From Planctomycetota bacterium (GTDB lineage: Bacteria; Planctomycetota; UBA11346): a DNA stretch of 26,611 bases. A program made the position numbers and the translations under genes. Location: the NCBI GenBank assembly GCA_038213315.1, contig JBBQTJ010000008.1, positions 1-26,611 on the forward strand, given 5' to 3'. Below the pieces are notes generated by a model. It worked only from the letters and a program-made list of their open reading frames with translations, had not been told where the DNA came from and searched no databases. This document shows positions 2,493-14,580 of the stretch, piece after piece; position 1 is the stretch's first letter; each line of letters begins with the position of its first letter.

Positions 2493-5396
2493 ATGCCCCT
2501 TGCTCATCTTGCCGCTGGTCACGCCTTGGTCCGTCTTGCCGCTGCCGTGCCCGAACGGGTCGCTGGTTGGGACGCCATCCTGGTCACGGCGGCCAGCCCC
2601 CAGCAGGCGGCGCTCTATCGGCTGCAACTGACCCGCGCCCGGGCCCGCGGCTTGCTGGCGGCCACCTGCCTGGACCTGGTGGTGCCGGATCCGGCGGGCA
2701 AACGCATCGGTAGTGGCGGCGCAACCCTGGGCGCCTTGCGCGCCTTGCAGGCCGCGGTGCCCGGTGACTGGACGGCCAAACGGGTGCTGCTGATCCACGC
2801 TGGTGGCGACAGCCGTCGGCTCCCCTGGGCCAATGTCATCGGCAAGCTCTTCGTGCCCTTTCCGTTGCTGGCCCCGGCAGAAGTGCCCCTGACCCTCTTC
2901 GATCACCTGCTCGCCATCGCTGCCCACGCGGCCCAGGCCATGCCAGCGGGGGGGCTGCTGACCCTGACCGGCGATGTACTGCCGCTGTTCGCCGCGGAGC
3001 GGATGCGTCCGCCGGTCGATGGGGGATTGGTTGTCACCGCGCCCACGCCGTTGGATCTGGCCAGCCGTCATGGGGTGATCCATGCCGGCGCGGATGGCTT
3101 GGTGCAGGATCTGCTGCAGAAGGCGACCCCGGCTCAATTGCAGACCTCGGGCGCGCTGGTGGGCGGTGCGGCGTTGTTGGACACCGGGGTTTATGCGTTC
3201 TTCGGTGGCGCTTTCAGCGGTCTGCTCCGCCTTGCGGCGCGCGCTGCCGATCCGGTGGCCGAGCTGGTCGCCAGCGGCAAAGAGATGAGCCTCTATGAAG
3301 AGATGGCCGCTGGCCTGGTGCCGCGCCGTCATGCCTGGCTTGAGGGACGCCCCCTCGGCGCAGAACTGCGCGGCGCCTTGCAGGGCTTTCCCCTGGTCGA
3401 GCACCGCGATGCCGAGTTTCGTTTCGTGCACCTGGGCACCACTGCCGAAGCGCTGGAGCATTTGCAGGATGACTGGGAGGGCCGCATGTCCCGCCGGGTG
3501 CTCTGCGAATGCGGACCCGCAGTTGACGATGGTGCGGTGATCGCCGCCAGTCTGCTCGACAGCGGCGCGGCGGTGGGCGCGGGTAGCCTGGTCTATGGTT
3601 CACATCTGGGTGGCCGCGTGGCGGTGGGCGCCCGCGCCGTGGTGCTGGGCGTGGACGTGCCGGATGCGCCCCTGCGCGTGCCGGACCACGCCTGCCTGTG
3701 GCAGGTGCCCCTGGCTGGTGGCGATCAGGTGGTGTCGGTGTGCTGCGGCGTCGACGATAATCCCAAGGACCTCTTCCCGGAATCCAGCTTCCTGGGCGAA
3801 CCGATGCCGGCGTGGCTTGATCGGCATGGCATCACCGCGGACGAGATCTGGCCGGCCGGCACCGCCAAGACCCTGTGGGATGCCCAGCTTTTCCCGGTCA
3901 TGCCGCGTCCGGCGGATGCGGGGTTGATGTCCTGGCTGTTGGCCGCCGCCCCCGCTGCCGGCCCGCTTGCCTGGCGGGCCTGCGAACGCCTCAGTCTGGC
4001 CCAGATCCACCGTCGCCTCGATCCCGATGCCGTGGTCGCCCGTCACGAAGAGCTGACCGGGCGCCTGGCCGTGCGTGGTGCGCTGAACGTGCTGGAGCAC
4101 GCCCTGGATCGGGACGTGTCGGCCATGGCGGCGCAGCTGACCCTGCCGCACCTGCGTCACGCCCTGGGGGCCTTGGCCGACGCGGGCGGCAGCGGTGAGG
4201 GCGTACCCGCCAGCCGCCGCCTGCAGGTGCGCGCCGATCTGCTGGCGGCCGGTGGGCAGCAGGCCCGTGCCGAGGCCACCAGTGACGAAGCCATGCGGGC
4301 CGTGCAGGCCGCGGTCACCGCCGCCATTGCTGATCGGCCGGTCGCACCGGTCAGCGGGGTGGACCCTGGCAGCCGGGCGACGCGCGAGCTGCCGGTGCGT
4401 TTCGACCTGGCCGGTGGCTGGACCGACACGCCACCGTATTGCCTGGAGCGGCCAGCGCGGGTGGTGAACCTAGCCATGTCCCTGGGCGGCCAATTGCCGG
4501 TGGGTGCCGAGGTGCAGGCCCTGGCCGAACCGCGCTTCGAACTGCTCATCGAAGGCGGCCCCAGTCGTACCATCAGCGATGCGCAGGAACTCGCCAACAT
4601 CACCCTGGCCGATACCCATGTGCTGCTGGTCACCGCCCTGGCGGTGTGCGGCTACGGCGACGGCCAGGGCATCACCCAGGGCTGTCGCGTACGCACCTGG
4701 TCGCACGTGCCGCGGGGCAGCGGTCTGGGTGGCAGTTCGATCCTGGCCGCGGCCTTGGTGGCCGCCTTGCAGCGTCTGGCCGGCCGCCCCGACGATCCAC
4801 GCACGGTCAGCGATCTGGTGTTGGTGCTCGAACAGCGCATGACCACCGGTGGCGGCTGGCAGGATCAGGTCGGCGCGTTGTGGCCCGGCATCAAGGCGAT
4901 CAGCAGTGTCCCGTCCCGCCCGCTGACGGTGCGCGTCGAGCCCATCACTGTGCCGGCTGCGGCGCGCCTTGCCCTAGAGCAGCGCCTGGTGCTGGTGTTC
5001 ACCGGCCAAGAGCGCCTGGCCAAGAACGTGCTTCAGATGGTGGTGCGCGGCTATCTGCGCCGCGACGGCCGGGTGCTGGCCGCCCTGCGCAACCTCGCTG
5101 GCCTGGCTGGGGATGCCCAGCAAGCCCTCAGCCTGGGCAATCTGGACTCCCTCGGCGGCATCCTCAAAGAGGTCTGGCACGCTCATCAGCAGCTTGATCC
5201 CCACTGCTCGAATCCGGCGGTGGATGCCATGTTTCGGGCCGTCGAGGACCTTGCCGTCGGTGGCAAGCTGGCCGGCGCGGGCGGCGGCGGCTTCCTGGGC
5301 GTGCTGGCCAAAGACGCCGAGTCGGCCCAGCGCATCGCCGGCCTGTTGCCGCAACGCTTCCCTGGCGTGCGGGTTTATCCGTGGGCGGTGGCTTAG
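2493..5396 (+). CDS. bifunctional L-fucokinase / fucose-1-phosphate guanylyltransferase (Fkp)-like protein, 967 aa
   Basis: The N-terminal half carries KRIGSGGATLGAL, matching the fucokinase-family nucleotidyltransferase motif (compare human FUK VGSGGATLNAL), and WDAILVTA. The C-terminal half carries the GHMP-kinase signature PRGSGLGGSSILAAALVAAL and a C-terminal GHMP fold. Architecture is collinear with Bacteroides Fkp. Confidence 0.8.
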   Translation: MPLAHLAAGHALVRLAAAVPERVAGWDAILVTAASPQQAALYRLQLTRARARGLLAATCLDLVVPDPAGKRIGSGGATLGALRALQAAVPGDWTAKRVLLIHAGGDSRRLPWANVIGKLFVPFPLLAPAEVPLTLFDHLLAIAAHAAQAMPAGGLLTLTGDVLPLFAAERMRPPVDGGLVVTAPTPLDLASRHGVIHAGADGLVQDLLQKATPAQLQTSGALVGGAALLDTGVYAFFGGAFSGLLRLAARAADPVAELVASGKEMSLYEEMAAGLVPRRHAWLEGRPLGAELRGALQGFPLVEHRDAEFRFVHLGTTAEALEHLQDDWEGRMSRRVLCECGPAVDDGAVIAASLLDSGAAVGAGSLVYGSHLGGRVAVGARAVVLGVDVPDAPLRVPDHACLWQVPLAGGDQVVSVCCGVDDNPKDLFPESSFLGEPMPAWLDRHGITADEIWPAGTAKTLWDAQLFPVMPRPADAGLMSWLLAAAPAAGPLAWRACERLSLAQIHRRLDPDAVVARHEELTGRLAVRGALNVLEHALDRDVSAMAAQLTLPHLRHALGALADAGGSGEGVPASRRLQVRADLLAAGGQQARAEATSDEAMRAVQAAVTAAIADRPVAPVSGVDPGSRATRELPVRFDLAGGWTDTPPYCLERPARVVNLAMSLGGQLPVGAEVQALAEPRFELLIEGGPSRTISDAQELANITLADTHVLLVTALAVCGYGDGQGITQGCRVRTWSHVPRGSGLGGSSILAAALVAALQRLAGRPDDPRTVSDLVLVLEQRMTTGGGWQDQVGALWPGIKAISSVPSRPLTVRVEPITVPAAARLALEQRLVLVFTGQERLAKNVLQMVVRGYLRRDGRVLAALRNLAGLAGDAQQALSLGNLDSLGGILKEVWHAHQQLDPHCSNPAVDAMFRAVEDLAVGGKLAGAGGGGFLGVLAKDAESAQRIAGLLPQRFPGVRVYPWAVA

Positions 5397-5511: not shown

Positions 5512-8052
5512 GTGCTTGCCAGGATCACTGAAAAACGCCTGTTGATCGTTCGGTGGCTGCTGCTACTGGCCTGGTGCGGACTCATCGCCGGGCTGCTGAC
5601 CATGCCGACGTTGCCGTTCCTCACGCTCTGGTGGTCAGCGGCCATTCCCGCCTTCCTGCTGTGCGTGCTTGTGCTTGGGCACGACACTTGGCGGCGGATC
5701 TGCCCACTGTCGGCCCTGAACCAGGTGCCGCGCCTGCTCGGCATCGGCCGGACGACGAAGGTGGCCGCCGGCTCGTGGCTGTCGCGGCATGCGCTGATGG
5801 TGCAGTTCACCGTGCTGACTGCCTGCGTGGTCCTGCGCCTGACCGTCCTCAACCAGTCGAGCGAGGCCCTGGGCATCTTCCTCATCGCCCTCCTGGGCAC
5901 GGCCCTGCTGGTCGGCTTCCTGGCGGGCGGCAAGTCCTGGTGCCACTTTGCCTGCCCGCTGGCGCCGGTGCAGATGGTTTACAGCGGTCCGCGCGGACTG
6001 CTGGCCACGCCGGCGGCCCTGGGCGGCAGCGGGCCCGGCCTGAGCCAAAGCATGTGCCGCAACGTCCGCGACGAACCGACCTGCGTGGCCTGCCACGCGC
6101 CCTGCCCGGACATCGACCTCGAAAAAAGTTATTGGGAGCAGCTCGAAGGGTTTGAGCGCCGCGCGGTGGTCTATGGCTATTTGGGATTGGCGGCCGGTTA
6201 CGTGATCCATGTGCGCGGCGCGCTGCCGATTTTCTGGGCGGGGCCGGTGGTGGTGGCGGCGATCCTGCTTGCCATCGGTGCGGGTGCGCTGCTGGAGCGA
6301 GCTTTGCGCGCCGGCGAGGCTACCCGCCACCGCCTGATGACCCTGGCGACGGTGCTGGCCTTCGGTCTGCTTATCGCTGGCGCGCTGCTGCCCTCCCTGC
6401 CCCAGGGCCTGCGCCTGCCGGTCGCGGCACTGACGTCGGCCGCCGCCGCGACCTGGAGCTGGAACGTGTGGCGCCGCACGCGCCGGCTGTGGCAGCGCGA
6501 GGCCATGGCCTCGGTGTTCCGCCGCCGCCTGGCCGAGCTGCCGCTGGACCTGTCGCCGCACCTCGATGGCCGGACCTTGGACCAGCTCTCCACCGACGAG
6601 GTCGGGGTGTTGGCCGCGGTGCTGCCCGGACTCAACCAAAGCCTGCGCCAGCGCCTCTACCAGGGCGTGCTCACCGACGCCGCCGCGGCTGGCCAGCTCG
6701 GCTCGGCGGACGGCGACGCCATGCTCGGGCGGTTGCGTAGCCAGCTGCACATCCCCGACGACCAGCACGAACTGCTGGTGGCAGCCCTACCCACCGCCGG
6801 CTCGATCAAGCGCCTGGATAGCTACCGGCAGGCGGTGGAGCGGCTGGTCCTGGACGGCCTGTCCGAAGGTGAAGCCCTGGATGAGGCGATCGAGCGCCGT
6901 CGCGAATCGCTGAGCCAGCTGCGGGCCGCCTATAGCGTCACCGACGAGGAGCAGGAGCAGGTGGTCTTTGCCTTGGTCAACGGCGATGGCCTGATCGGCC
7001 GTGCCGGCTCCTCGCTGCTGGCCGAGCTTGAACGGCTGTGCGCCGCGCGGGCGGCCCTGGGCACGGCGGGCGCCGAGGGCTTCCTGCGCGCCCACCTGGA
7101 CGAGCGCGGCCGGGCCCTGGCCACGCAGTTCAACGGGGTGCAGGCCGCGCTCGGAACCAGCGCCGCTGGCCAGGCCCTGGCCGTGGCCCGCACCGCCGCG
7201 GCCATCGACCCCGACCTGGTACCCGGCGCGTCGGGCCGCATCGCGCCCCTGGCCGTGGCCGAGGTCCGCACGCTCCTGGGCGGGGACGCGGATCCGATCG
7301 TCGCGGCTGTCGCCCGCCAACCGACCAGCCCGGCGGTGGTCCTGCGCCTGGCCCTGGCGGGCGAGGACGTGCCGTGCCGGGAAGCCACCGCACGCATCGG
7401 CCGCGATCCCGCCTCGACCGTGGTGGTCACCCATCCCCAGGCCAGCCGCAACCACTGCCTGGTCGGGCTGGATGCGGATGGCGCCTGGCTCCACGATCTG
7501 GGCAGCGGCAACGGCACCCTGGTCGACGGCCGTCTGGTGCGCGGGGCGCGGGTGCGGTTGCGCGCCAATGCGGTGATCCGCATCGGCAGCGACGGCCCCA
7601 GCTTGGCCGTAGGTGCGCGCGACTACGTGCCCAGCGACCGGGTAGACCTTTTTCTCGCCCTGCGCGCTTCGGCCTTGGGCACGCTGCCACAGGCCGTGCT
7701 GTGGGACCTGGCCGAGGTCTCCGCCCTGCGCTTGGAGTCGGCCGGCACCCGGCTGATAGAGGAGGGCGCGCCGGTCTGGTCGCTGCTGGTGCTGGTCGGC
7801 GGCACGGCAGTGGCGACCAGTGGCGGCCGGACGGTGGGCGAGATCGCCGTTGGCGAGACCATCGGGGAACTGGCCCTGATCAGCGAGCAATCGGCCGCGG
7901 TCACGGTGACCGCGGTCACCGCCTGCACGACGCTGGCCATCCCCGGGATCAGGGTCGCCAGCCTGCTGGCCCGCCATCCCGGCGTGGCCACCGCTCTGCT
8001 CATGCTTACTGGTCGACGTCTTGCCAGCGCTGCAATTGCGGCTAACGACTAA
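5512..8052 (+). CDS. multidomain membrane protein: NapH/MauN-like polyferredoxin (COG0348-type) N-terminal domain + helical linker + FHA domain + C-terminal cyclic-nucleotide-binding (CAP-family) domain
   Basis: 846-aa ORF with a GTG start at 5512 (start uncertain; an internal Met lies at 5602). Multiple TM helices carry the Cys motifs RICPLSAL, GKSWCHFACPLAP and MCRNVRDEPTCVACHAPCPD (a CxxCxxxCP 4Fe-4S-type motif). The FHA core is RIGRDPASTVVV...NHCLVGLDADGAWLHDLGSGNGTLVDGRLV (about 7370-7660). The cNMP-binding core is GETIGELALISEQ near the C-terminus (about 7660-8040). Confidence 0.75.
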   Translation: MLARITEKRLLIVRWLLLLAWCGLIAGLLTMPTLPFLTLWWSAAIPAFLLCVLVLGHDTWRRICPLSALNQVPRLLGIGRTTKVAAGSWLSRHALMVQFTVLTACVVLRLTVLNQSSEALGIFLIALLGTALLVGFLAGGKSWCHFACPLAPVQMVYSGPRGLLATPAALGGSGPGLSQSMCRNVRDEPTCVACHAPCPDIDLEKSYWEQLEGFERRAVVYGYLGLAAGYVIHVRGALPIFWAGPVVVAAILLAIGAGALLERALRAGEATRHRLMTLATVLAFGLLIAGALLPSLPQGLRLPVAALTSAAAATWSWNVWRRTRRLWQREAMASVFRRRLAELPLDLSPHLDGRTLDQLSTDEVGVLAAVLPGLNQSLRQRLYQGVLTDAAAAGQLGSADGDAMLGRLRSQLHIPDDQHELLVAALPTAGSIKRLDSYRQAVERLVLDGLSEGEALDEAIERRRESLSQLRAAYSVTDEEQEQVVFALVNGDGLIGRAGSSLLAELERLCAARAALGTAGAEGFLRAHLDERGRALATQFNGVQAALGTSAAGQALAVARTAAAIDPDLVPGASGRIAPLAVAEVRTLLGGDADPIVAAVARQPTSPAVVLRLALAGEDVPCREATARIGRDPASTVVVTHPQASRNHCLVGLDADGAWLHDLGSGNGTLVDGRLVRGARVRLRANAVIRIGSDGPSLAVGARDYVPSDRVDLFLALRASALGTLPQAVLWDLAEVSALRLESAGTRLIEEGAPVWSLLVLVGGTAVATSGGRTVGEIAVGETIGELALISEQSAAVTVTAVTACTTLAIPGIRVASLLARHPGVATALLMLTGRRLASAAIAAND

Positions 8053-8069: not shown

Positions 8070-9692
8070 ATGCTGACTCTGCGCATCTCACATCCCCTGC
8101 ATGGCGATCGGGTCGCGACGCTGACCCAGGGGGACTTCACTGGCGACGGGGTGGCCGTTGGCCGCGCCCCCCGTAACCGCATCGTCCTCGACGAGCAGGT
8201 GGTCAGCCGGCTGCACGCCCGCCTGACCCTGACTGCGGGCGGGGTCTTCATCGCCGACTGCGCCTCGACTGCGGGCATCCTGTTGAACGGCGTGCGGCTG
8301 CCGCCCAGCACCCCGGCGCGGGTGGCGGATGGGGATCTCATCGCCATCGGCCCGTACACTATCGCGCTCGCGCCGGCGGTCTCGCTGGCCGCAGAACCCG
8401 AGGGCCTGGGCTTAACCGTCATGGCCGCTCCGCCGGTGGATTCCTACATGCCGTTGGCCGTCCTCGCCGATCAGGAGCCGGCCCAGTGGACGGGCGGTGA
8501 GCTGGCCGTGCGCGTGGTGCGCATCATCGACGAGACGCCGGACGTGAAGACCTTCGTCTTTGCGGCTGCCCATCCGACCCAGTTCACCTACCTGCCTGGC
8601 CAGTTCGCTACCATCGAGGTCCTGATCGACGGGGTGAAGACCAGCCGCAGCTACACCCTGTCGTCGACGCCCACCCGCCCATATACGCTCTCGATCACCG
8701 TTAAACGCGTGGCTGCCGCCAACGATCTGCCGGCGGGCAAGGTCAGCTCCTGGCTGCACGCACACTTGGCCGTGGGCGATGAACTGCGCATCAATGGTCC
8801 CTTCGGCGACTTTTCGTGTGCCCGCCATCCCAGCCCGCGGCTGCTGCTGATCAGCGCCGGCAGCGGCATTACGCCCATGTTGTCGATGGCGCGTTGGCTG
8901 GCCGACAGCGCCGCCGAGGCCGACGTCGCCTTCGTGCACAGCGCACGCAGCAGCGCCGACTTGATCTGCCGCCAGGACCTCGAGCTGCTCGTCGTCCATA
9001 ACCCGCGCCTGCGCGTGGTGCTGGCGACCACCCGGCCCGAGCCCGGCTCGCGCTGGACCGGCCTGAGCGGGCGCATTTCTCTCGACATGTTGCGCCTGAC
9101 CGTGCCGGACTTCGAGCGCCGCACGGTGTTCTGCTGCGGCCCAGAGGGCTTCATGGCCGGCACCAAGGAGATGCTCGCCCAGGCCGGCTTCCCCATGGCG
9201 AACTACCACGAGGAGAGCTTCGGCGCGCCCAGGCGCCCCACGCCCGCGGCGACACACAACCAGTCGGCCGTGTCCCCGCCGACGGAGTTTGGGCTGAAGG
9301 CTTTGCTGCGCGTCGACGCCTCGCCCCGCGCTGCCGCGCCCATGACCGCTGCCGCGCCCATGACCGCCGCCGCGCCCGGCCCCCACGGCAGCAGCGCGAC
9401 CCGCACCGCCATAAAAACCGAGACACTGGGCAGCCTGCACTTCACCGGCAGCCGCGTCTCGCTGGTGTGCCCGCCGGCCCAGACCGTGCTCGAAGCGGGT
9501 GAGAGCAAGGGCATCAAGCTGCCCTTCGGCTGCCGCATTGGGAAATGCGGCGCCTGCAAACTGGTTAAGCGCAGCGGCGAGGTGCTGGCCGACGGCTACG
9601 ACGATAGCATCCTGAAGGCAGGCGAGCGCAGCAAGGGCTACGTCTTGGCCTGCATCGCCCGACCCGCGGGCCGGGTCGAGATCGAAGCGTAG
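8070..9692 (+). CDS. FHA domain fused to a ferredoxin-NAD(P) reductase-type oxidoreductase (FAD/NAD binding) with a C-terminal plant-type 2Fe-2S ferredoxin domain
   Basis: 540 aa, 18 bp downstream of the previous gene, so a likely operon. FHA: GRAPRNRIVLDEQVVSRLHARL...DCASTAGILLNGVRL...GDLIAIG. FAD motif RSYTLSS (RxYS), GKVSSWL, NAD motif LLLISAGSGITPML, and CGPEGFM. 2Fe-2S: CRIGKCGACK...YVLAC. The linker carries a tandem AAPMTAAAPMTAAAP repeat. Confidence 0.8.
   Translation: MLTLRISHPLHGDRVATLTQGDFTGDGVAVGRAPRNRIVLDEQVVSRLHARLTLTAGGVFIADCASTAGILLNGVRLPPSTPARVADGDLIAIGPYTIALAPAVSLAAEPEGLGLTVMAAPPVDSYMPLAVLADQEPAQWTGGELAVRVVRIIDETPDVKTFVFAAAHPTQFTYLPGQFATIEVLIDGVKTSRSYTLSSTPTRPYTLSITVKRVAAANDLPAGKVSSWLHAHLAVGDELRINGPFGDFSCARHPSPRLLLISAGSGITPMLSMARWLADSAAEADVAFVHSARSSADLICRQDLELLVVHNPRLRVVLATTRPEPGSRWTGLSGRISLDMLRLTVPDFERRTVFCCGPEGFMAGTKEMLAQAGFPMANYHEESFGAPRRPTPAATHNQSAVSPPTEFGLKALLRVDASPRAAAPMTAAAPMTAAAPGPHGSSATRTAIKTETLGSLHFTGSRVSLVCPPAQTVLEAGESKGIKLPFGCRIGKCGACKLVKRSGEVLADGYDDSILKAGERSKGYVLACIARPAGRVEIEA
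9333..9377 (+). repeat. in-frame tandem repeat (18-bp unit gccgcgcccatgaccgcy x2.5) in the linker of the FHA-FNR protein
   Basis: Direct sequence inspection: gccgcgcccatgaccgct gccgcgcccatgaccgcc gccgcgccc. It encodes AAPMTAAAPMTAAAP. Confidence 0.7.
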
Positions 9693-9693
9693 C

Positions 9694-9720
9694 GTCACGG
9701 GCCGCGGGACGGCCCGTGAC
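9694..9720. terminator. perfect GC-rich hairpin between convergent operons (candidate bidirectional terminator)
   Basis: gtcacgggccg-cggga-cggcccgtgac: an 11-bp perfect stem with a 5-nt loop. It lies between the stop of the + strand gene (9692) and the stop of the - strand gene (9724). No U-tract, so not a canonical intrinsic terminator. Confidence 0.45.
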
Positions 9721-9723
9721 CCG

Positions 9724-10599
9724 TTAGCCGCCGCCGAGCATCTTCATCGCCTTCTGCAGACTGATGCGCATGCGCGAGAACGAGCCGGCCAGGCTGGCGA
9801 TCTCATCCTTGCCGGCGATCTTGGGATCGCCCGCCGAGAAGTCGCCCTTGCTCACCTGGTCGCACAGGCGGCTCAGGCGGGTGATCGGCCGCACCACCAT
9901 CACGCGCATGGCGAGGTTGAGGCTGATCAGGGCCAGGACGCCAGCGGCGGTAAGCGAGCCCATGAACACCAAGAAGGTGGTGCGCGCGCGCTCCAGGGAC
10001 ACCGAGGCCGGCACGGCGACGATCTGGGCGCCGACGATCTCGTTCATCTTCCAGCCGAAGCCGTTGTTGGGGCCATAGATCTTGATCACGCTCGCCGGCG
10101 CCTTGTCCGGCGTGCTGTGGCAGTCCAGGCAGCTCGCGTTGGTGATCTGGATCGGCCGGGCGATGTACATGACTTCGCCGGTCGGGGTGGTGCGCGTGCC
10201 GGAGACCTCCTTCGCGGTTTCGTTATTGCGGAAGTAGCCGATGATGTCGCTCTCCCAGTCTACCGCCCGGTCGGCGGGGTTGGTCGGATTGAGGGCCGCC
10301 TCGCGGTAGGTGTAGTCGGAGTGCTTCACGCGCAGCAGGTCGAAGGCGCGCATGGCGGCGAAGGCCGGCACCGTCTCGGGATGGAACACGTCGGCACCGA
10401 GCTGGGCGACCAGCGGCTTGACGTTGTTGATGGTATAGGTGCGCATCGACATCGCCGCTTCGAGCATCAGCGTGGCGCGCTCCCGGATCTCCGCCCGGGC
10501 GTTGCTGTAGATGATCTGGTACGAGATGGTGCCCATGACCAGCAGGGCCGCCACGAAAGTCGCGGTGAGGATGAGCGTGAACTTGGTGCGGAGATTCAT
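9724..10599 (-). CDS. membrane signalling protein: periplasmic c-type-heme sensor domain (CXXCH; DUF3365/Tll0287-like) + TM + HAMP domain, with no output domain
   Basis: 291 aa. N-terminal TM FTLILTATFVAALLVMGTI. The periplasmic part contains CLDCH, a c-type heme-binding motif. A second TM FLVFMGSLTAAGVLALISLNLA is followed by a HAMP-like segment (RPITRLSRLCDQVSKGDFSAGD...EIASLAGSFSRM). Its start ATG overlaps the kinase stop (ATGA). Confidence 0.7.
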   Translation of the reverse strand: MNLRTKFTLILTATFVAALLVMGTISYQIIYSNARAEIRERATLMLEAAMSMRTYTINNVKPLVAQLGADVFHPETVPAFAAMRAFDLLRVKHSDYTYREAALNPTNPADRAVDWESDIIGYFRNNETAKEVSGTRTTPTGEVMYIARPIQITNASCLDCHSTPDKAPASVIKIYGPNNGFGWKMNEIVGAQIVAVPASVSLERARTTFLVFMGSLTAAGVLALISLNLAMRVMVVRPITRLSRLCDQVSKGDFSAGDPKIAGKDEIASLAGSFSRMRISLQKAMKMLGGG

Positions 10600-12053
10600 A
10601 TGAGGCTCAGTTTCTGCATTTCCTTGCGGAACGCGGCGCGGTCATGGTCGTCGGGGATCTCGCTTTCGAGCTGGGCGATGAGATCCTTGATGCTGCTCGC
10701 CTTGTTCACCATCCGCTTGACCAGCATCTGGGCGATCGGGCCGATGTGCTTGGCCAGTTCGCGGGAGATGTTCTCGGTAATCTCGTCGTCGGCGATCTTC
10801 GTGGCGGCACGCGGCGCGGTGGCGCGCGGCGCAATGGCATCTGCCCCCGCAGAGGAGCCGCTCGCCTCGATGGCCTTGCGCGCGGCGGCGGTGTTGAGCA
10901 GCGAGGTGATGTTCTCCAGCGCCGGCGAGGCGCGCAGCTGGTCGCCAGCCTGGGAAGTAAGGTTGTCGAGCAACTGCTGGGCGTTGGTCGCCGACTTGAT
11001 CGACTTGAACAAGACCGGCGTGGCCCGCTCGCCGATCGACTCCTCAAGCTGCTTGCGGATCTCCTCGACCAGGTGAGAAGGGATGGAGCGCATGCGCGTC
11101 AGGTCGACTGACGGCGCCTGGATACCGGTGACCATTGTGCGGTCTCCGTCTATCCCGCCGGCGAAACCGGGGACACCTTCAAGCCGTTGCAGCACCGCAT
11201 CGGCGTGCTGGGGCCGCTGCACCGCCTGCGGCCGCATCAGCCAGGCCAGCACCTGCGCCAGCTGCGCGCCGGCACTGTCCCGGGCGGCGATGACCTTCAG
11301 CGACCCGTCGATGCCGTCGGTCTGGTTGGACTGGTCCGAGATGGTGCGCTGGATCGCCTCGGTCGGAACAGTGCCGGTCAGGCAGTACAGCATGCAGGCG
11401 CCGACTGCGTACAGGTCGGTGGCCGGGCCCTGGGCATCGGTGCCGGTATATTGTTCCATGGGCGCATAGCCTGCGGTCACCAGCACCGTGAAGTTGCGCT
11501 CCTGGTCGCCCAGGTTTTGCCGGGCCGAGCCGAAGTCGAGCAACAGGATGCTGCCGTCGGGCCGGCGCATGATGTTGGCCGGTTTAATGTCACGGTGGAG
11601 GTAGCTGTGGGCGTGAATGACCCGCAGGGCCTTCAGGATCTCGATCAGGATGGCCCGCGCCTCGCCCACGCTAAGGGTGCCGTACTGGCGCACGTGATCG
11701 CGTAGCGTCATGCCCTCGACGTAGTCCATCACCATATAGGCGGTGTTGTTGGCCTCGTGGAAGCCGTGGACGTGCACGATGCGCGGGTCGCGGAACTGGG
11801 CGAGCGTGCGGGCCTCGTCCAGGAAGCGGTTGAGGCGCTTCCGGTAGCCCTCGTCGTCCACTTTGCCGGCGATGGTGAGCCCGTCCAAGGCCCGCGTCAC
11901 CTGGCCGTGCAGGAAGTACTCTTTGATGGCCACCATGCGCTGGAGCTGCACGTCCCAGGCCTGGTAGGTAAGGCCGAAGCCGCCGCGGCCCAGCAGTTTG
12001 GCGATGCGGTAGTGACCCAGCTGGGTGCCGGGCTGCAGGGCGTCGTCAGGCAT
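10596..12053 (-). CDS. Hanks-type serine/threonine protein kinase with a ~210-aa C-terminal helical extension containing an internal repeat
   Basis: Glycine loop LGRGGFGLTY, VAIK (catalytic Lys), HRDIKPANIM, DFGSAR and APE-like motifs. C-terminal repeats LVEEIRKQLEESIGERATPVL... and ITENISRELAKHIGPIAQMLV.... No TM segment. Translationally coupled to the downstream HAMP gene. Confidence 0.9.
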   Translation of the reverse strand: MPDDALQPGTQLGHYRIAKLLGRGGFGLTYQAWDVQLQRMVAIKEYFLHGQVTRALDGLTIAGKVDDEGYRKRLNRFLDEARTLAQFRDPRIVHVHGFHEANNTAYMVMDYVEGMTLRDHVRQYGTLSVGEARAILIEILKALRVIHAHSYLHRDIKPANIMRRPDGSILLLDFGSARQNLGDQERNFTVLVTAGYAPMEQYTGTDAQGPATDLYAVGACMLYCLTGTVPTEAIQRTISDQSNQTDGIDGSLKVIAARDSAGAQLAQVLAWLMRPQAVQRPQHADAVLQRLEGVPGFAGGIDGDRTMVTGIQAPSVDLTRMRSIPSHLVEEIRKQLEESIGERATPVLFKSIKSATNAQQLLDNLTSQAGDQLRASPALENITSLLNTAAARKAIEASGSSAGADAIAPRATAPRAATKIADDEITENISRELAKHIGPIAQMLVKRMVNKASSIKDLIAQLESEIPDDHDRAAFRKEMQKLSLI

Positions 12054-12707
12054 GGTGCCTCCAGGTAGGACCGGCTTGGGTCCGGAGGCAGGGCGCGGTG
12101 AAGGGCATGGCGGTGCGCATGGTTGTTTTGAGTATCATCGGCACAAGTGGGCATTAGCCTGACTTGAATATCATTGCTTTGCAACTGTCGCGCCCCGCTC
12201 GTGATCAGTTCCGCCCATGGTTCTAGCAGCGTAGCGGTAGACCTCGAGGCGCAGCTCTGGCGAAAATCCCGCCCCCACGGAGCCCTGCGCCGGAAGTCGC
12301 AAGTCTCATCAATCATGACGACGGCTTGATTCGGCGGCCGAGTGCAAGCGCTCATCTCGTAAGCACCGCCATCCTATCCGCGTGCTGGGACCGGGGCACC
12401 ACTGCGCCCGGGCCGATGCTGGCAGCCTGAGAATGTGGCCAAACGGTTTTATAACTGCGCCCGACGCCAGGTCCCTACCGGTAAGCTCAGCCAAGTAGAC
12501 TTCGAACTCCAACTGATCAATGCCGCTTACTGAGCTTTCCCATGCGGGTTGAGTGCGTCCTCTTGGGATTGCGGGCCACTGGCCCGCTCGAACGCCTGAT
12601 GGAAGGCATGCGAGCCGATGGCCGGCGGTCTCAGGGTTGCGCCGCGCCTAGTCAATCTATGAGTGAAAGCACAGTAACCAGCCGTTCGCAGCATCGGAGG
12701 AGGTCAT

Positions 12708-12959
12708 GTGTCGCGCAATTGGCTGACCGTGGGCTTTTGTGCGCGCTATGGCTTGACCGTGGCCAGCGTCGATCTGTCCGACCGCATCGCCGAGGCTCGG
12801 GCCTTGATCCTGGCCACGCATCTGCCCCTGGTCGAGATCGGCCGAGGCGTTGGGCTGCCGGATCCGCAGCACTTCAACAAGCGCTTCAAGACCTGTGGAA
12901 GACATCCCCCATCACACCTGCGCCGCGCTCGCGGCGCAGCATTTGGCGTGCGGGCATGA
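12708..12959 (+). pseudogene. AraC/XylS-family transcriptional regulator remnant (C-terminal HTH domain only)
   Basis: Frame opens after a TAA at 12675-12677. Translation SRNWLTVGFCARYGLTVASVDLSDRIAEARALILATHLPLVEIGRGVGLPDPQHFNKRFKTCGRHPPSHLRRAR matches the end of HTH1 plus the whole of HTH2 of AraC-family proteins. No N-terminal domain is present upstream in any frame. A strong GGAGGAGG SD precedes the GTG at 12708, so a truncated 83-aa product may still be made. Its stop overlaps the next start (ATGA). Confidence 0.5.
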
Positions 12960-13492
12960 GCACGCCCAGGCCCTATCAGCCATTCTGGTGCGAAGAGAAT
13001 ATCTGGCACCTGGCTGCGTCAGATGAGGTGGGTCCAGGCGAGCGCGTCGTCCTACTGGTGACCGGGGCGAGCGGTCAGGTGGCCTGCTGGGGGCAGCGTG
13101 CCGCCGCAGCCGGCGTGGCGATGCTGTGGGACTACCATGTGGTCTTGGCGGTACGTGGTCCTGGCGACACGGTGCTCTGGGATCTGGATTCCCGTCACGG
13201 CTGCCCGCTGCCACTGCCTCTGTGGCTGCACGAAACCTTCCCCAACAACGACCGGGTCCGGACTCTGTTCCAACCACGCTTCCAGATTATTCCGGCGCAG
13301 AATTACCGGCGGGATTTTTCCAGTGATCGCCAGCACATGCGCACGGCCAATGGCGCGTGGCAGCAGGCCCCACCAGCATGGCCGCTGATCACCGGCGGAG
13401 CCGTCACCTTGGCCGACTATCGGCAGCAGGCCCAGCACCAGGGCGTCGGGCTGACCGAGGTGGCCCAGCGACTGGCCCCGCAGCCGCTCTGA
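12956..13492 (+). CDS. protein N-terminal glutamine amidohydrolase (NTAQ1 / WDYHV-motif, Nt_Gln_amidase family) homolog
   Basis: 178 aa from ATG 12956. Motifs: FWCEENIWHL (eukaryotic NTAQ1 CYCEENIWKL, catalytic Cys), WDYHVVLAV (the family WDYHV signature), FSSDRQHMRT (FASDRSHMKD), NGAWQQAPP (GNWREPPP). The track ORF 12542..13492 is the same frame with an arginine-rich N-terminal extension that is probably not translated. Confidence 0.7.
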   Translation: MSTPRPYQPFWCEENIWHLAASDEVGPGERVVLLVTGASGQVACWGQRAAAAGVAMLWDYHVVLAVRGPGDTVLWDLDSRHGCPLPLPLWLHETFPNNDRVRTLFQPRFQIIPAQNYRRDFSSDRQHMRTANGAWQQAPPAWPLITGGAVTLADYRQQAQHQGVGLTEVAQRLAPQPL

Positions 13493-13651: not shown

Positions 13652-14338
13652 TCAGGAGCGGCTGTCCTGGGGGTGGTAGCGGACTTCGATCTGCTCCACA
13701 GGTTCGGTGCGGTCATCGGCGCCCAGGTGCGCGATGTCGGCCAGCGCTCCGGTCATGCGCCAGGTGCGATCCACCGGCAGGCGACGCACCAGGGTGGTGA
13801 GCGCAGCGGGATGCCAGTCACAGGCCACCGCCCGTCCGGTCATCAGCTTGGCCAGTTCGTTGAGGATGATCGCGTGACTGACCACCACCACGCGCTGGGC
13901 GAACGGCTTGCGCGCCTTCAGGTCGGCCACCACGGCGGTGCAGCGCTGTTGAATGGTGCGATCAGACTCCGGATGGCTCGGCTTGCCGGCCCCGACGCGA
14001 CGCTCGGCCCAGGCCGGATCCATGGCGCTGGTCGCGCTGAAGGGGCTGCCCAGCACCTGCGACAGCAAGACCTCGCCGAGGCGCCAATCCGCCGTGACGG
14101 TGGTGGCACAGGCCGCCGCGATGAGGTCGGCGGTTTCCAGACAGCTGCGGAAGGGTGAGGACAGCACCACCGTGGCCCCACCGTCAGCGGCCACGCGCGT
14201 GGCGGCATGCCGGGCCTGGGTCTGCCCGCTGGCGGCCAGCGCGGCATCAAGCCGCAAGTGCGGTTCGGTGCCCCGCACTTTCAAGCGCTGATCCCAAGAG
14301 AGGAGGTAGCCGTGGCGGATCAGGACGATGGTCTGCAT
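13652..14338 (-). CDS. histidine phosphatase (phosphoglycerate mutase family) protein
   Basis: Starts at MQTIVLIRHGY (RHG catalytic motif), with SSPFRSCLETADLIA and VVSHAIIL (the second His). The track ORF extends 22 codons further upstream, but the conserved family start is at the Met of MQTIVLIRHG. Confidence 0.7.
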   Translation of the reverse strand: MQTIVLIRHGYLLSWDQRLKVRGTEPHLRLDAALAASGQTQARHAATRVAADGGATVVLSSPFRSCLETADLIAAACATTVTADWRLGEVLLSQVLGSPFSATSAMDPAWAERRVGAGKPSHPESDRTIQQRCTAVVADLKARKPFAQRVVVVSHAIILNELAKLMTGRAVACDWHPAALTTLVRRLPVDRTWRMTGALADIAHLGADDRTEPVEQIEVRYHPQDSRS

Positions 14339-14580
14339 GTACCGCGAGGGTGGCGGGCCAGGGGCGGAACGGAATCCTGAAAATGCCCCTGGCTCTGCTG
14401 GCAATCGGGTCGATCCAGACGGCAGGATCAGGACATCAATGCACCTGCCTCGCTCTGGATCCTACCCTCATCACCCGCTTCTGTACCGACGGCAACACCG
14501 TGGTGCGAGGCGTGTTCAGCGCTGCCGAGGTCGCCCACTTCCGCACCCTGAGCCTAGCCCGCAGCGGCGGCAGAGCCGCC

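Follow-up and report, generated by a model that had tools for sequence, protein, structure and literature searches.

An FHA-bearing flavin-[2Fe-2S] reductase and its conserved membrane partner in a Planctomycetota contig, a candidate signal-gated electron-input module

We examined a 26,611-nucleotide stretch from a Planctomycetota bacterium of the GTDB lineage UBA11346 (NCBI GenBank assembly GCA_038213315.1, contig JBBQTJ010000008.1, positions 1 to 26,611 of the forward strand; hereafter the window), centring on a gene whose product joins an N-terminal FHA domain to a flavin- and NAD(P)H-binding reductase and a C-terminal plant-type [2Fe-2S] ferredoxin domain (Table 1). The conserved partner of this FHA-reductase is the gene upstream of it, which encodes a membrane protein with a putative Fe-S site, a second FHA domain and a cyclic nucleotide monophosphate (cNMP)-binding domain, and not the nearby Ser/Thr kinase gene. 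We favour, with reasonable though far from full confidence, the reading that the reductase is the signal-gated electron-input subunit of a two-gene module running from NAD(P)H through flavin adenine dinucleotide (FAD) and [2Fe-2S] to a membrane Fe-S protein. The module is rare, conserved and uncharacterised, and framing it as an oxygenase reductase does not hold.

A conserved two-gene module

Linkage was assessed by searching the collected loci (tblastn) with segments of the window proteins, and loci with at least 2.5 kb of upstream DNA entered the pairing count. The membrane domain of the partner accompanied 44 of 45 FHA-reductases, lying immediately upstream in most and downstream in one (L023), and was found with none of 26 FHA-less GbcB-type loci from Rhizobiales and their relatives. 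The two genes often overlap, as in L002, L004 and L088. In the window they are 17 nt apart, measured from the partner's stop codon to the reductase ATG, and an AGGAA box precedes that ATG by 11 nt. Flanks around the module were unrelated between lineages.

That the window pair forms a single enzyme is argued most strongly by gene fusion. Five single chains of 1153-1522 residues (P0239, P0250, P0269, P0277 and P0315) combine the membrane domain with FAD_binding_6, NAD_binding_1 and Fer2, and the fused reductase aligns to the window protein across its FNR and Fer2 parts. In three of these five, a PilZ domain stands just ahead of the reductase, and because PilZ takes that place in fused relatives, the FHA position looks like a swappable regulatory slot; across the family, the readers carried by the reductase are FHA or PilZ.

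The membrane partner

Seven cysteines of the partner were invariant among 30 homologues (C64-P, C144-x3-C148-P and C182-x8-C191-x2-C194-x3-C198), as was the surrounding WC144HFAC148P stretch, and by the positive-inside rule all seven would face the cytoplasm. Fer4_5 (PF12801) was detected at E < 0.05 in 28 of the 30 homologues (best 2.4e-7), with the window protein reaching 16.4-18 bits against a cut-off of 22. The best NCBIfam scores for the partner were those of NapH/MauN (TIGR02163, 22.8 bits vs. a cut-off of 213), CcoG (TIGR02745, 17.4 vs. 317) and NosR (NF046105, 10.2 vs. 1000), and NapH scores across the partner family ranged from 11 to 23 bits. Given these weak family scores and a search for solved structures resembling the partner model that found none, sequence likeness points to a distant, unnamed relative of the NapH/NosR/CcoG (Fer4_5) superfamily.

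Like NapH/MauN, CcoG and NosR, the partner is a polytopic membrane protein with CX3CP-type motifs, predicted to be cytoplasmic, and Cys clusters. It differs in having 8 helices, one four-Cys site where those families have two ferredoxin motifs, a sizeable mid-domain made of helices, FHA, cNMP-binding or HEAT extensions, and a dedicated NAD(P)H reductase in place of a quinol or unknown donor. These extensions vary by homologue (FHA, cNMP-binding, HEAT or none). The family is rare, with 121 matches at E ≤ 1e-30 and 330 at E ≤ 1e-10 among 1.84 billion representatives, and all of its named members are annotated as 'hypothetical protein'. One locus (L094, 5680-12068) encodes, consecutively and on one strand, a protein resembling cupredoxins, a HAMP-GGDEF cyclase and a 1355-residue fusion of membrane Fe-S domain, PilZ, FNR and Fer2; this copper-protein neighbour, a single case, recalls CcoG, a cupric reductase (review PMC7558416).

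The reductase and the proposed electron path

All four Pfam domains of the reductase (FHA, FAD_binding_6, NAD_binding_1 and Fer2) scored above their gathering thresholds, FHA at 60.6 bits against 20.7 (PF00498) and Fer2 at 51.4 against 21 (PF00111). In an alignment of 54 homologues, the phosphothreonine pocket of the FHA domain was strictly conserved at G31, R32, S46 and H49 (54/54 each) and largely so at R47 (51/54) and N73 (42/54), with S66 and G69 also invariant (54/54); the domain is a predicted phosphothreonine reader. The flavin and nucleotide motifs (R193-S-Y-T, G223-K-V-S226, S262-A-G-S-G-I-T-P269, C356-G-P and F384) were invariant or near-invariant over the 54 sequences in the form R193-x-Y195-(S/T), G223-x-x-S226, AGSGITP, CGP and F384, and the ligand set of the ferredoxin domain (C488-x4-C493-x2-C496...C528) was kept in 54/54. 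These results bear out a preliminary description of the sequence, which had named an N-terminal FHA domain and a complete FAD/NAD(P)H reductase with a C-terminal plant-type 2Fe-2S domain and had proposed an alignment check of the reductase motifs; RxY(S/T), GxxS and GxGxxP (as AGSGITP) were all found. AlphaFold2 predicted three confident modules (aa 1-104, 117-390 and 450-540, mostly with a predicted local distance difference test score, pLDDT, above 90), separated by low-confidence linkers at aa 105-116 and 394-449.

Under the reading we favour, the FNR-like module would take hydride from NAD(P)H onto its flavin and pass single electrons to its own [2Fe-2S] domain, which, on its long disordered tether, would most likely deliver them to the cytoplasmic Cys/Fe-S site of the partner. 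The eight-helix partner, as a distant relative of NapH, CcoG and NosR, would then reduce a membrane or periplasmic acceptor. The FHA domain in the swappable slot would act as a regulatory reader, coupling electron flow or subunit assembly to phosphothreonine marks, which may be written by the convergent Ser/Thr kinase that is paired with a haem-c Cache_heme-HAMP receptor of the nitric oxide (NO) type, while the FHA and cNMP-binding domains of the partner would add further inputs.

Signalling readers and the receptor-kinase pair

Next to the module and convergent with it, two genes overlapping by 4 nt encode a receptor with two transmembrane helices and a kinase in which the VAIK, HRD and DFG motifs are present and Pfam detects neither PASTA nor another extracellular sensor domain. 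They share the architecture of the published Cache_heme-HAMP receptor (CHH) and Ser/Thr kinase (STPK) system, that is, a Cache_heme domain with CXXCH, transmembrane segments and an output-less HAMP domain, in an operon with a PASTA-less PknB-like kinase. In CHH-STPK, the receptor binds NO, the kinase docks on HAMP via two C-terminal helical modules and NO enhances phosphorylation of a HAMP Thr, while the downstream output is stated to be unknown and FHA domains are not mentioned (Deshpande et al. 2026, bioRxiv 10.64898/2026.05.25.727664). Two helical modules related to each other were also recognised at the C-terminus of the window kinase (aa 328-371 vs. 424-467, score 49 vs. 28 ± 4.9 for shuffles, maximum 45), in a comparison of that kinase sequence with itself. 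NO binding by the window receptor is putative, and its HAMP connector (SKGDFSAGDPK) has Ser and no Thr where the published phosphosite is described. Direct contact between a HAMP phosphothreonine and an FHA domain is therefore doubtful here, and the kinase's own phospho-sites are an alternative FHA target.

Because a CHH-STPK-type pair adjoins the module and that pathway has no reported output, the two FHA proteins are candidates for its readout. In the fullest version of this idea, the FHA-reductase and its FHA/cNMP partner would be the missing effector of the periplasmic NO-sensing pathway: phosphorylation of Thr residues would rise on NO binding, the resulting phospho-sites would recruit the FHA domains, and an NAD(P)H-driven electron path into a hitherto uncharacterised membrane Fe-S reductase would be assembled or switched on, with each kind of reader (FHA, PilZ, cNMP) matched by an adjacent writer. 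We put this forward tentatively and regard it, taken whole, as unlikely.

Candidate writers do lie close to the module in several loci. In L094, only 28 nt separate the PilZ fusion from the HAMP-GGDEF cyclase upstream of it, and in L092 the module carries a cNMP-binding domain and has a Cache_heme-HNOBA-guanylate cyclase 2 kb away. A Ser/Thr kinase gene lies directly upstream in L091 (Nodularia), the start of the FHA-reductase is overlapped by a kinase-WD40 gene in L093, and a same-strand kinase is found 1.1-1.4 kb upstream in about 11 Leptolyngbya-like loci. The receptor and kinase pair itself, including the kinase C-terminus, recurs 3 kb from the module in Pseudanabaena (L061). Searching by tblastn for the Tll0287-like domain returned only L061 and L001, a contig of another sample, and missed the divergent copy in L092, though it is present in precomputed Pfam data, so that counts of sensor neighbours are lower bounds. 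Between the module and the pair, L061 (12386-14558) also encodes a periplasmic protein of the phosphonate-binding type and a protein with a ComFB domain, whose family binds cyclic nucleotides.

Several observations weigh against a signal-gated electron-input module. The partner scores too low in Pfam and NCBIfam to be assigned to NapH, CcoG or NosR and resembles no solved structure found, so that even its cofactor is a prediction. No Thr that could serve as an FHA ligand is kept family-wide in the linkers (T116 in 21/54, T405 in 17/54, T446 in 14/54), and the Ser in the HAMP connector counts on the same side. Kinase domains were found within ~10 kb in only 22/54 loci, the closest relatives (L002, L088 and L090) have no kinase gene adjoining the module, and cyanobacteria, against which these kinase counts have to be read, are kinase-rich. 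One Fer2-less FHA-FNR protein (P0039; L089, 10001-11206) lacks the membrane partner and has an ABC-permease-like gene upstream, in a single locus. Since the closest relatives have no adjoining kinase and cyanobacteria are rich in kinases, the link between kinase and module is suggestive and not proven. The preliminary description had paired the FHA domain with the neighbouring kinase, which is plausible, although the conserved partner proved to be the upstream gene.

The main competing explanation accepts the module and treats the receptor-kinase pair as a chance neighbour, with FHA serving as a constitutive docking domain or reading a kinase encoded elsewhere. Besides the kinase-free modules of the closest relatives and the HAMP connector without Thr, it can draw on the convergent orientation of the kinase operon, which is not co-transcribed with the module, and on the presence of a CHH and kinase pair in only 2 of ~57 independent loci, itself a lower bound. 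Against it stand the strict conservation of the phosphate-binding FHA residues, the kinase genes that abut or overlap the module in many distant loci, the recurrence of writers next to readers in the GGDEF/PilZ and cyclase/cNMP combinations, and the occurrence of rare CHH receptors near the module in two distant lineages, which exceeds expectation on a rough estimate. On this balance, we consider a chance neighbour somewhat unlikely, though an explanation of real weight.

Relation to oxygenase reductases and other known systems

The preliminary description had assigned the reductase the layout of class-I dioxygenase and benzoate reductases. The benzoate-reductase part is wrong and the order of phthalate dioxygenase reductase (PDR), a class IA reductase, is right, because the BenC-like structure 5ogx aligned in swapped order (its Fer2 at chain positions 13-87 against query positions 462-538), while full-length fold matches in the same order were obtained with 7YLR, the CYP116B reductase domains (6LAA, 6KBH) and PDR 2PIA. 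Pfam domain order and fold matches agree on the flavin-NAD-[2Fe-2S] arrangement of PDR, GbcB, Hcr and PaaE. The best NCBIfam match was GbcB (NF058606, 322.8 bits vs. a cut-off of 500), followed by Hcr (NF007964, 193.5 vs. 383), PaaE (TIGR02160, 127.6 vs. 420.8) and BenC (NF040810, 126.9 vs. 430). Membership was rejected for BenC, a class IB dioxygenase reductase, in which Fer2 is N-terminal and not C-terminal as here and whose cut-off was not reached, for GbcB, given the sub-threshold score and the lack of a Rieske oxygenase among the scanned window ORFs (open reading frames), and for Hcr on its score. By these scores, the sequence is nearer the FAD-type reductases GbcB and Hcr than PDR, which binds flavin mononucleotide.

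We find it improbable that the protein supplies electrons to a Rieske-type oxygenase, either as a GbcB-like reductase for glycine betaine monooxygenase or with a PDR/VanB/PaaE-type partner, and has acquired FHA for regulation. Such a role would fit the best NCBIfam match, the label 'glycine betaine catabolism B' that many homologues carry in JGI data, the PDR-like domain order and a Rieske gene immediately downstream of and convergent to the module in L092. However, the GbcB score is well under its cut-off, and no Rieske, desaturase or P450 gene was found among the scanned window ORFs, where the GbcA Rieske neighbour is thus lacking, or in L002, L004, L006, L088, L090 and L091. Moreover, true GbcB-type loci have neither FHA nor the membrane partner, and the fusion chains link the reductase to the membrane domain and not to an oxygenase. 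The L092 region (9668-13078, Kastovskya adunca) encodes the Rieske protein convergent to the FHA-reductase, with the guanylate cyclase 2 kb off; its Rieske gene recurred in no other locus examined, and a Rieske protein was rejected as a general partner.

GbcB, Hcr and PaaE, the best sequence matches, share FAD_binding_6, NAD_binding_1, C-terminal Fer2 and the cofactor motifs, but have no FHA domain, long disordered tether or membrane Fe-S partner, and their oxygenase or Hcp partners were not found here. PDR (2PIA), CYP116B (6LAA, 6KBH) and 7YLR, the top full-length fold matches, have the same domain order; PDR and CYP116B lack FHA and serve soluble oxygenases or P450s, and the sequence match to 2PIA lies mainly over Fer2. 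NqrF of the Na+-NQR complex is a strong fold match to the FNR part and likewise combines an NADH:FAD FNR module with a [2Fe-2S] domain that feeds membrane subunits, whereas its Fer2 is N-terminal and it has a membrane anchor, belongs to a six-subunit pump and carries no signalling domains. For the signalling side, the nearest likenesses are the Rv1747 ABC transporter with PknF, in which Rv1747 likewise contains a pair of FHA domains, together with a disordered linker that accepts phosphate (PMC8339232, PMC5549992), and the Fha/PpkA system of type VI secretion (PMC3953482). Both place FHA on or beside a membrane machine as the readout of a Ser/Thr kinase, but neither is a redox enzyme, and in the present module each of the two subunits has its own FHA domain.

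Linker and tandem repeat

The linker ahead of the ferredoxin domain is A/P/S/T-rich and ranged from 36 to 118 aa across the 54 homologues, its sole conserved part being a short helix (F/YGLKALL, aa 407-415, nt 9288-9314). Inside the disordered portion lies an 18-bp tandem repeat encoding AAAPMT-AAAPMT-AAAP (aa 421-436). The preliminary description had reported a perfect repeat of 2.5 copies at 9333-9377; the tandem duplication is real, but it starts at 9329, and perfection is limited to units one and two (9329-9346 and 9347-9364, without a mismatch between them), since the incomplete third carries a single T>C change. The longest exact self-match was 21 nt at an offset of 18, compared with a maximum of 14 in 100 Markov-1 simulations. 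Because both copies read ATG, the repeat is a recent duplication of the slippage type in the window.

The repeat is also length-variable, as the preliminary description had supposed for a slippage-prone segment. In L001, which derives from run SRR15443080 and encodes a 99%-identical protein, there is exactly one 18-bp unit fewer, and the sister proteins P0001 and P0335 (534 aa) likewise have a single AAAP[V/I]T, the variable residue being M, V or I. Other homologues had only trivial linker repeats of 3-5 aa. This difference in copy number between 99%-identical sequences is what would favour a contingency locus with a function in tuning or switching enzyme activity, a role we judge very improbable: the unit is in frame and cannot turn expression off, pLDDT is below 50 at a spot with no conserved sequence in a linker of widely varying length, and only two against one full units were observed. 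Phase variation by the repeat was rejected on the same grounds of an in-frame unit in a disordered linker of variable length. Since it lies in a disordered linker within the family's range of lengths, a 6-aa in-frame change in the tether is most likely neutral, and the repeat as such is of no particular consequence. The region has another low-complexity linker repeat, a weak 7/15-bp tandem repeat in the kinase gene (10804-10839, APRATAPRAAT), which falls in the A/P-rich linker between the two C-terminal kinase modules.

Distribution of the fusion

Searching 5.8 billion proteins with the reductase gave 811 matches at E ≤ 1e-10, and architecture was read from the best 120 clusters listed. All 120 had FHA and reductase domains and most also had Fer2. 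The clusters came from NCBI, JGI, ENA and Logan and were mostly cyanobacterial; named carriers included Nostoc, Scytonema, Nodularia, Anabaenopsis circularis NIES-21 and the betaproteobacterium Denitromonas iodatirespirans. The A. circularis carrier is a complete chromosome, and a 6.5-Mb complete chromosome was among the homologue sources. Consequently, the preliminary remark that FHA is atypical on such a reductase applies to characterised reductases only. The possibility raised alongside it, that the fusion is an artefact of assembly or gene calling, is ruled out for practical purposes by the unbroken reading frame, the conserved MLTLR-type start, which is common to the homologues, and the same architecture across these four sources including the complete chromosome, with nothing found to support it.

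The exact 540-aa protein was absent from the protein collection searched, where its closest relatives were metagenome or metagenome-assembled genome (MAG) sequences, and the best matches among species-representative genomes were cyanobacterial at ~40% identity. None of the FHA-reductase homologues has a functional name, and full-text literature searches pairing FHA with this type of reductase, its iron-sulfur cluster or its Pfam domains returned nothing on an FHA-reductase fusion. Many homologue clusters are occupied by FHA-FNR variants of ~400 aa without Fer2, which may be a separate system.

Other features of the window

The window has a G+C content of 66%, and a sigma-70 promoter scan gave no sites. 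Between the convergent reductase and receptor genes, a G+C-rich hairpin (Table 1) lacks a T tract and drew no call from the terminator scan; it may terminate transcription from both sides. Immediately 5' of the module, 2493-5396 (+) encodes a 967-aa bifunctional fucose pyrophosphorylase and GHMP kinase (Fkp-like), a neighbour also seen in L001 and not in more distant relatives. A gene of the histidine phosphatase superfamily (His_Phos_1) lies within a few kb of the module both in the window (13652-14404, -) and in the MAG locus L002 (5326-5790). The ORF at 12542-13492 (+) matches the N-terminal glutamine amidase family (PF09764, E 3e-33, aa 145-302), which is mainly eukaryotic; its first ~140 aa look non-coding, and the true start is probably further downstream.

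Table 1 Positions of the module, its neighbours and their parts in the window (AF2, AlphaFold2; TM, transmembrane; TRF, Tandem Repeats Finder; MFE, minimum free energy)
Feature	Position	Strand	Evidence
Partner gene, 846 aa: 8-TM membrane domain (putative Fe-S), helical mid-domain, FHA, cNMP-binding	5512..8052	+	Pfam, locus comparison
Partner membrane domain, aa 1-330	5512..6501	+	Alignment; AF2 pLDDT 82; 8 long helices
Partner FHA (aa 628-692) and cNMP-binding (aa 744-822)	7393..7977	+	Pfam, E 4e-15 and 4e-9
FHA-FNR-[2Fe-2S] reductase gene, 540 aa	8070..9692	+	ORF; Pfam domains; AF2 mean pLDDT 85
Reductase FHA core, aa 29-94 (folded unit aa 1-104)	8154..8351	+	PF00498, E 2e-16; pocket residues
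FNR-like FAD-binding (aa 148-248) and NAD(P)H-binding (aa 260-366)	8511..9167	+	PF00970, PF00175; motifs; PDB sequence and fold matches
Disordered linker, aa 394-449, with short conserved helix	9249..9416	+	pLDDT <50 except helix 409-415
18-bp tandem repeat, 2.7 copies, aa 421-436	9329..9377	+	TRF, 96%
Plant-type [2Fe-2S] ferredoxin domain, aa 459-532, Cys 488/493/496/528	9444..9665	+	PF00111, E 1e-13
G+C-rich 11-bp hairpin between convergent reductase and receptor genes	9694..9720		MFE -27.5 kcal/mol, z -2.2
Cache_heme (Tll0287-like, CLDCH aa 157-161) and output-less HAMP receptor, 291 aa	9724..10599	-	PF11845, E 4e-39; HAMP, E 9e-8
Cytoplasmic Ser/Thr kinase, 485 aa	10596..12053	-	Pkinase, E 3e-37

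Implications

Reductases of the FNR-[2Fe-2S] kind are usually seen as constitutive suppliers of oxygenases, and here a conserved lineage of them is dedicated to a rare membrane protein with a putative Fe-S site. If the electron-input module is gated as proposed, it would represent an enzyme family controlled by interchangeable second-messenger or phospho readers, each with a matching writer gene nearby, and its wiring to phosphothreonine, cyclic-nucleotide or cyclic di-GMP signalling would clearly exemplify electron input that is gated post-translationally. Lying beside a receptor-kinase pair of a type whose output is unreported, the module offers a concrete, testable candidate for that output.

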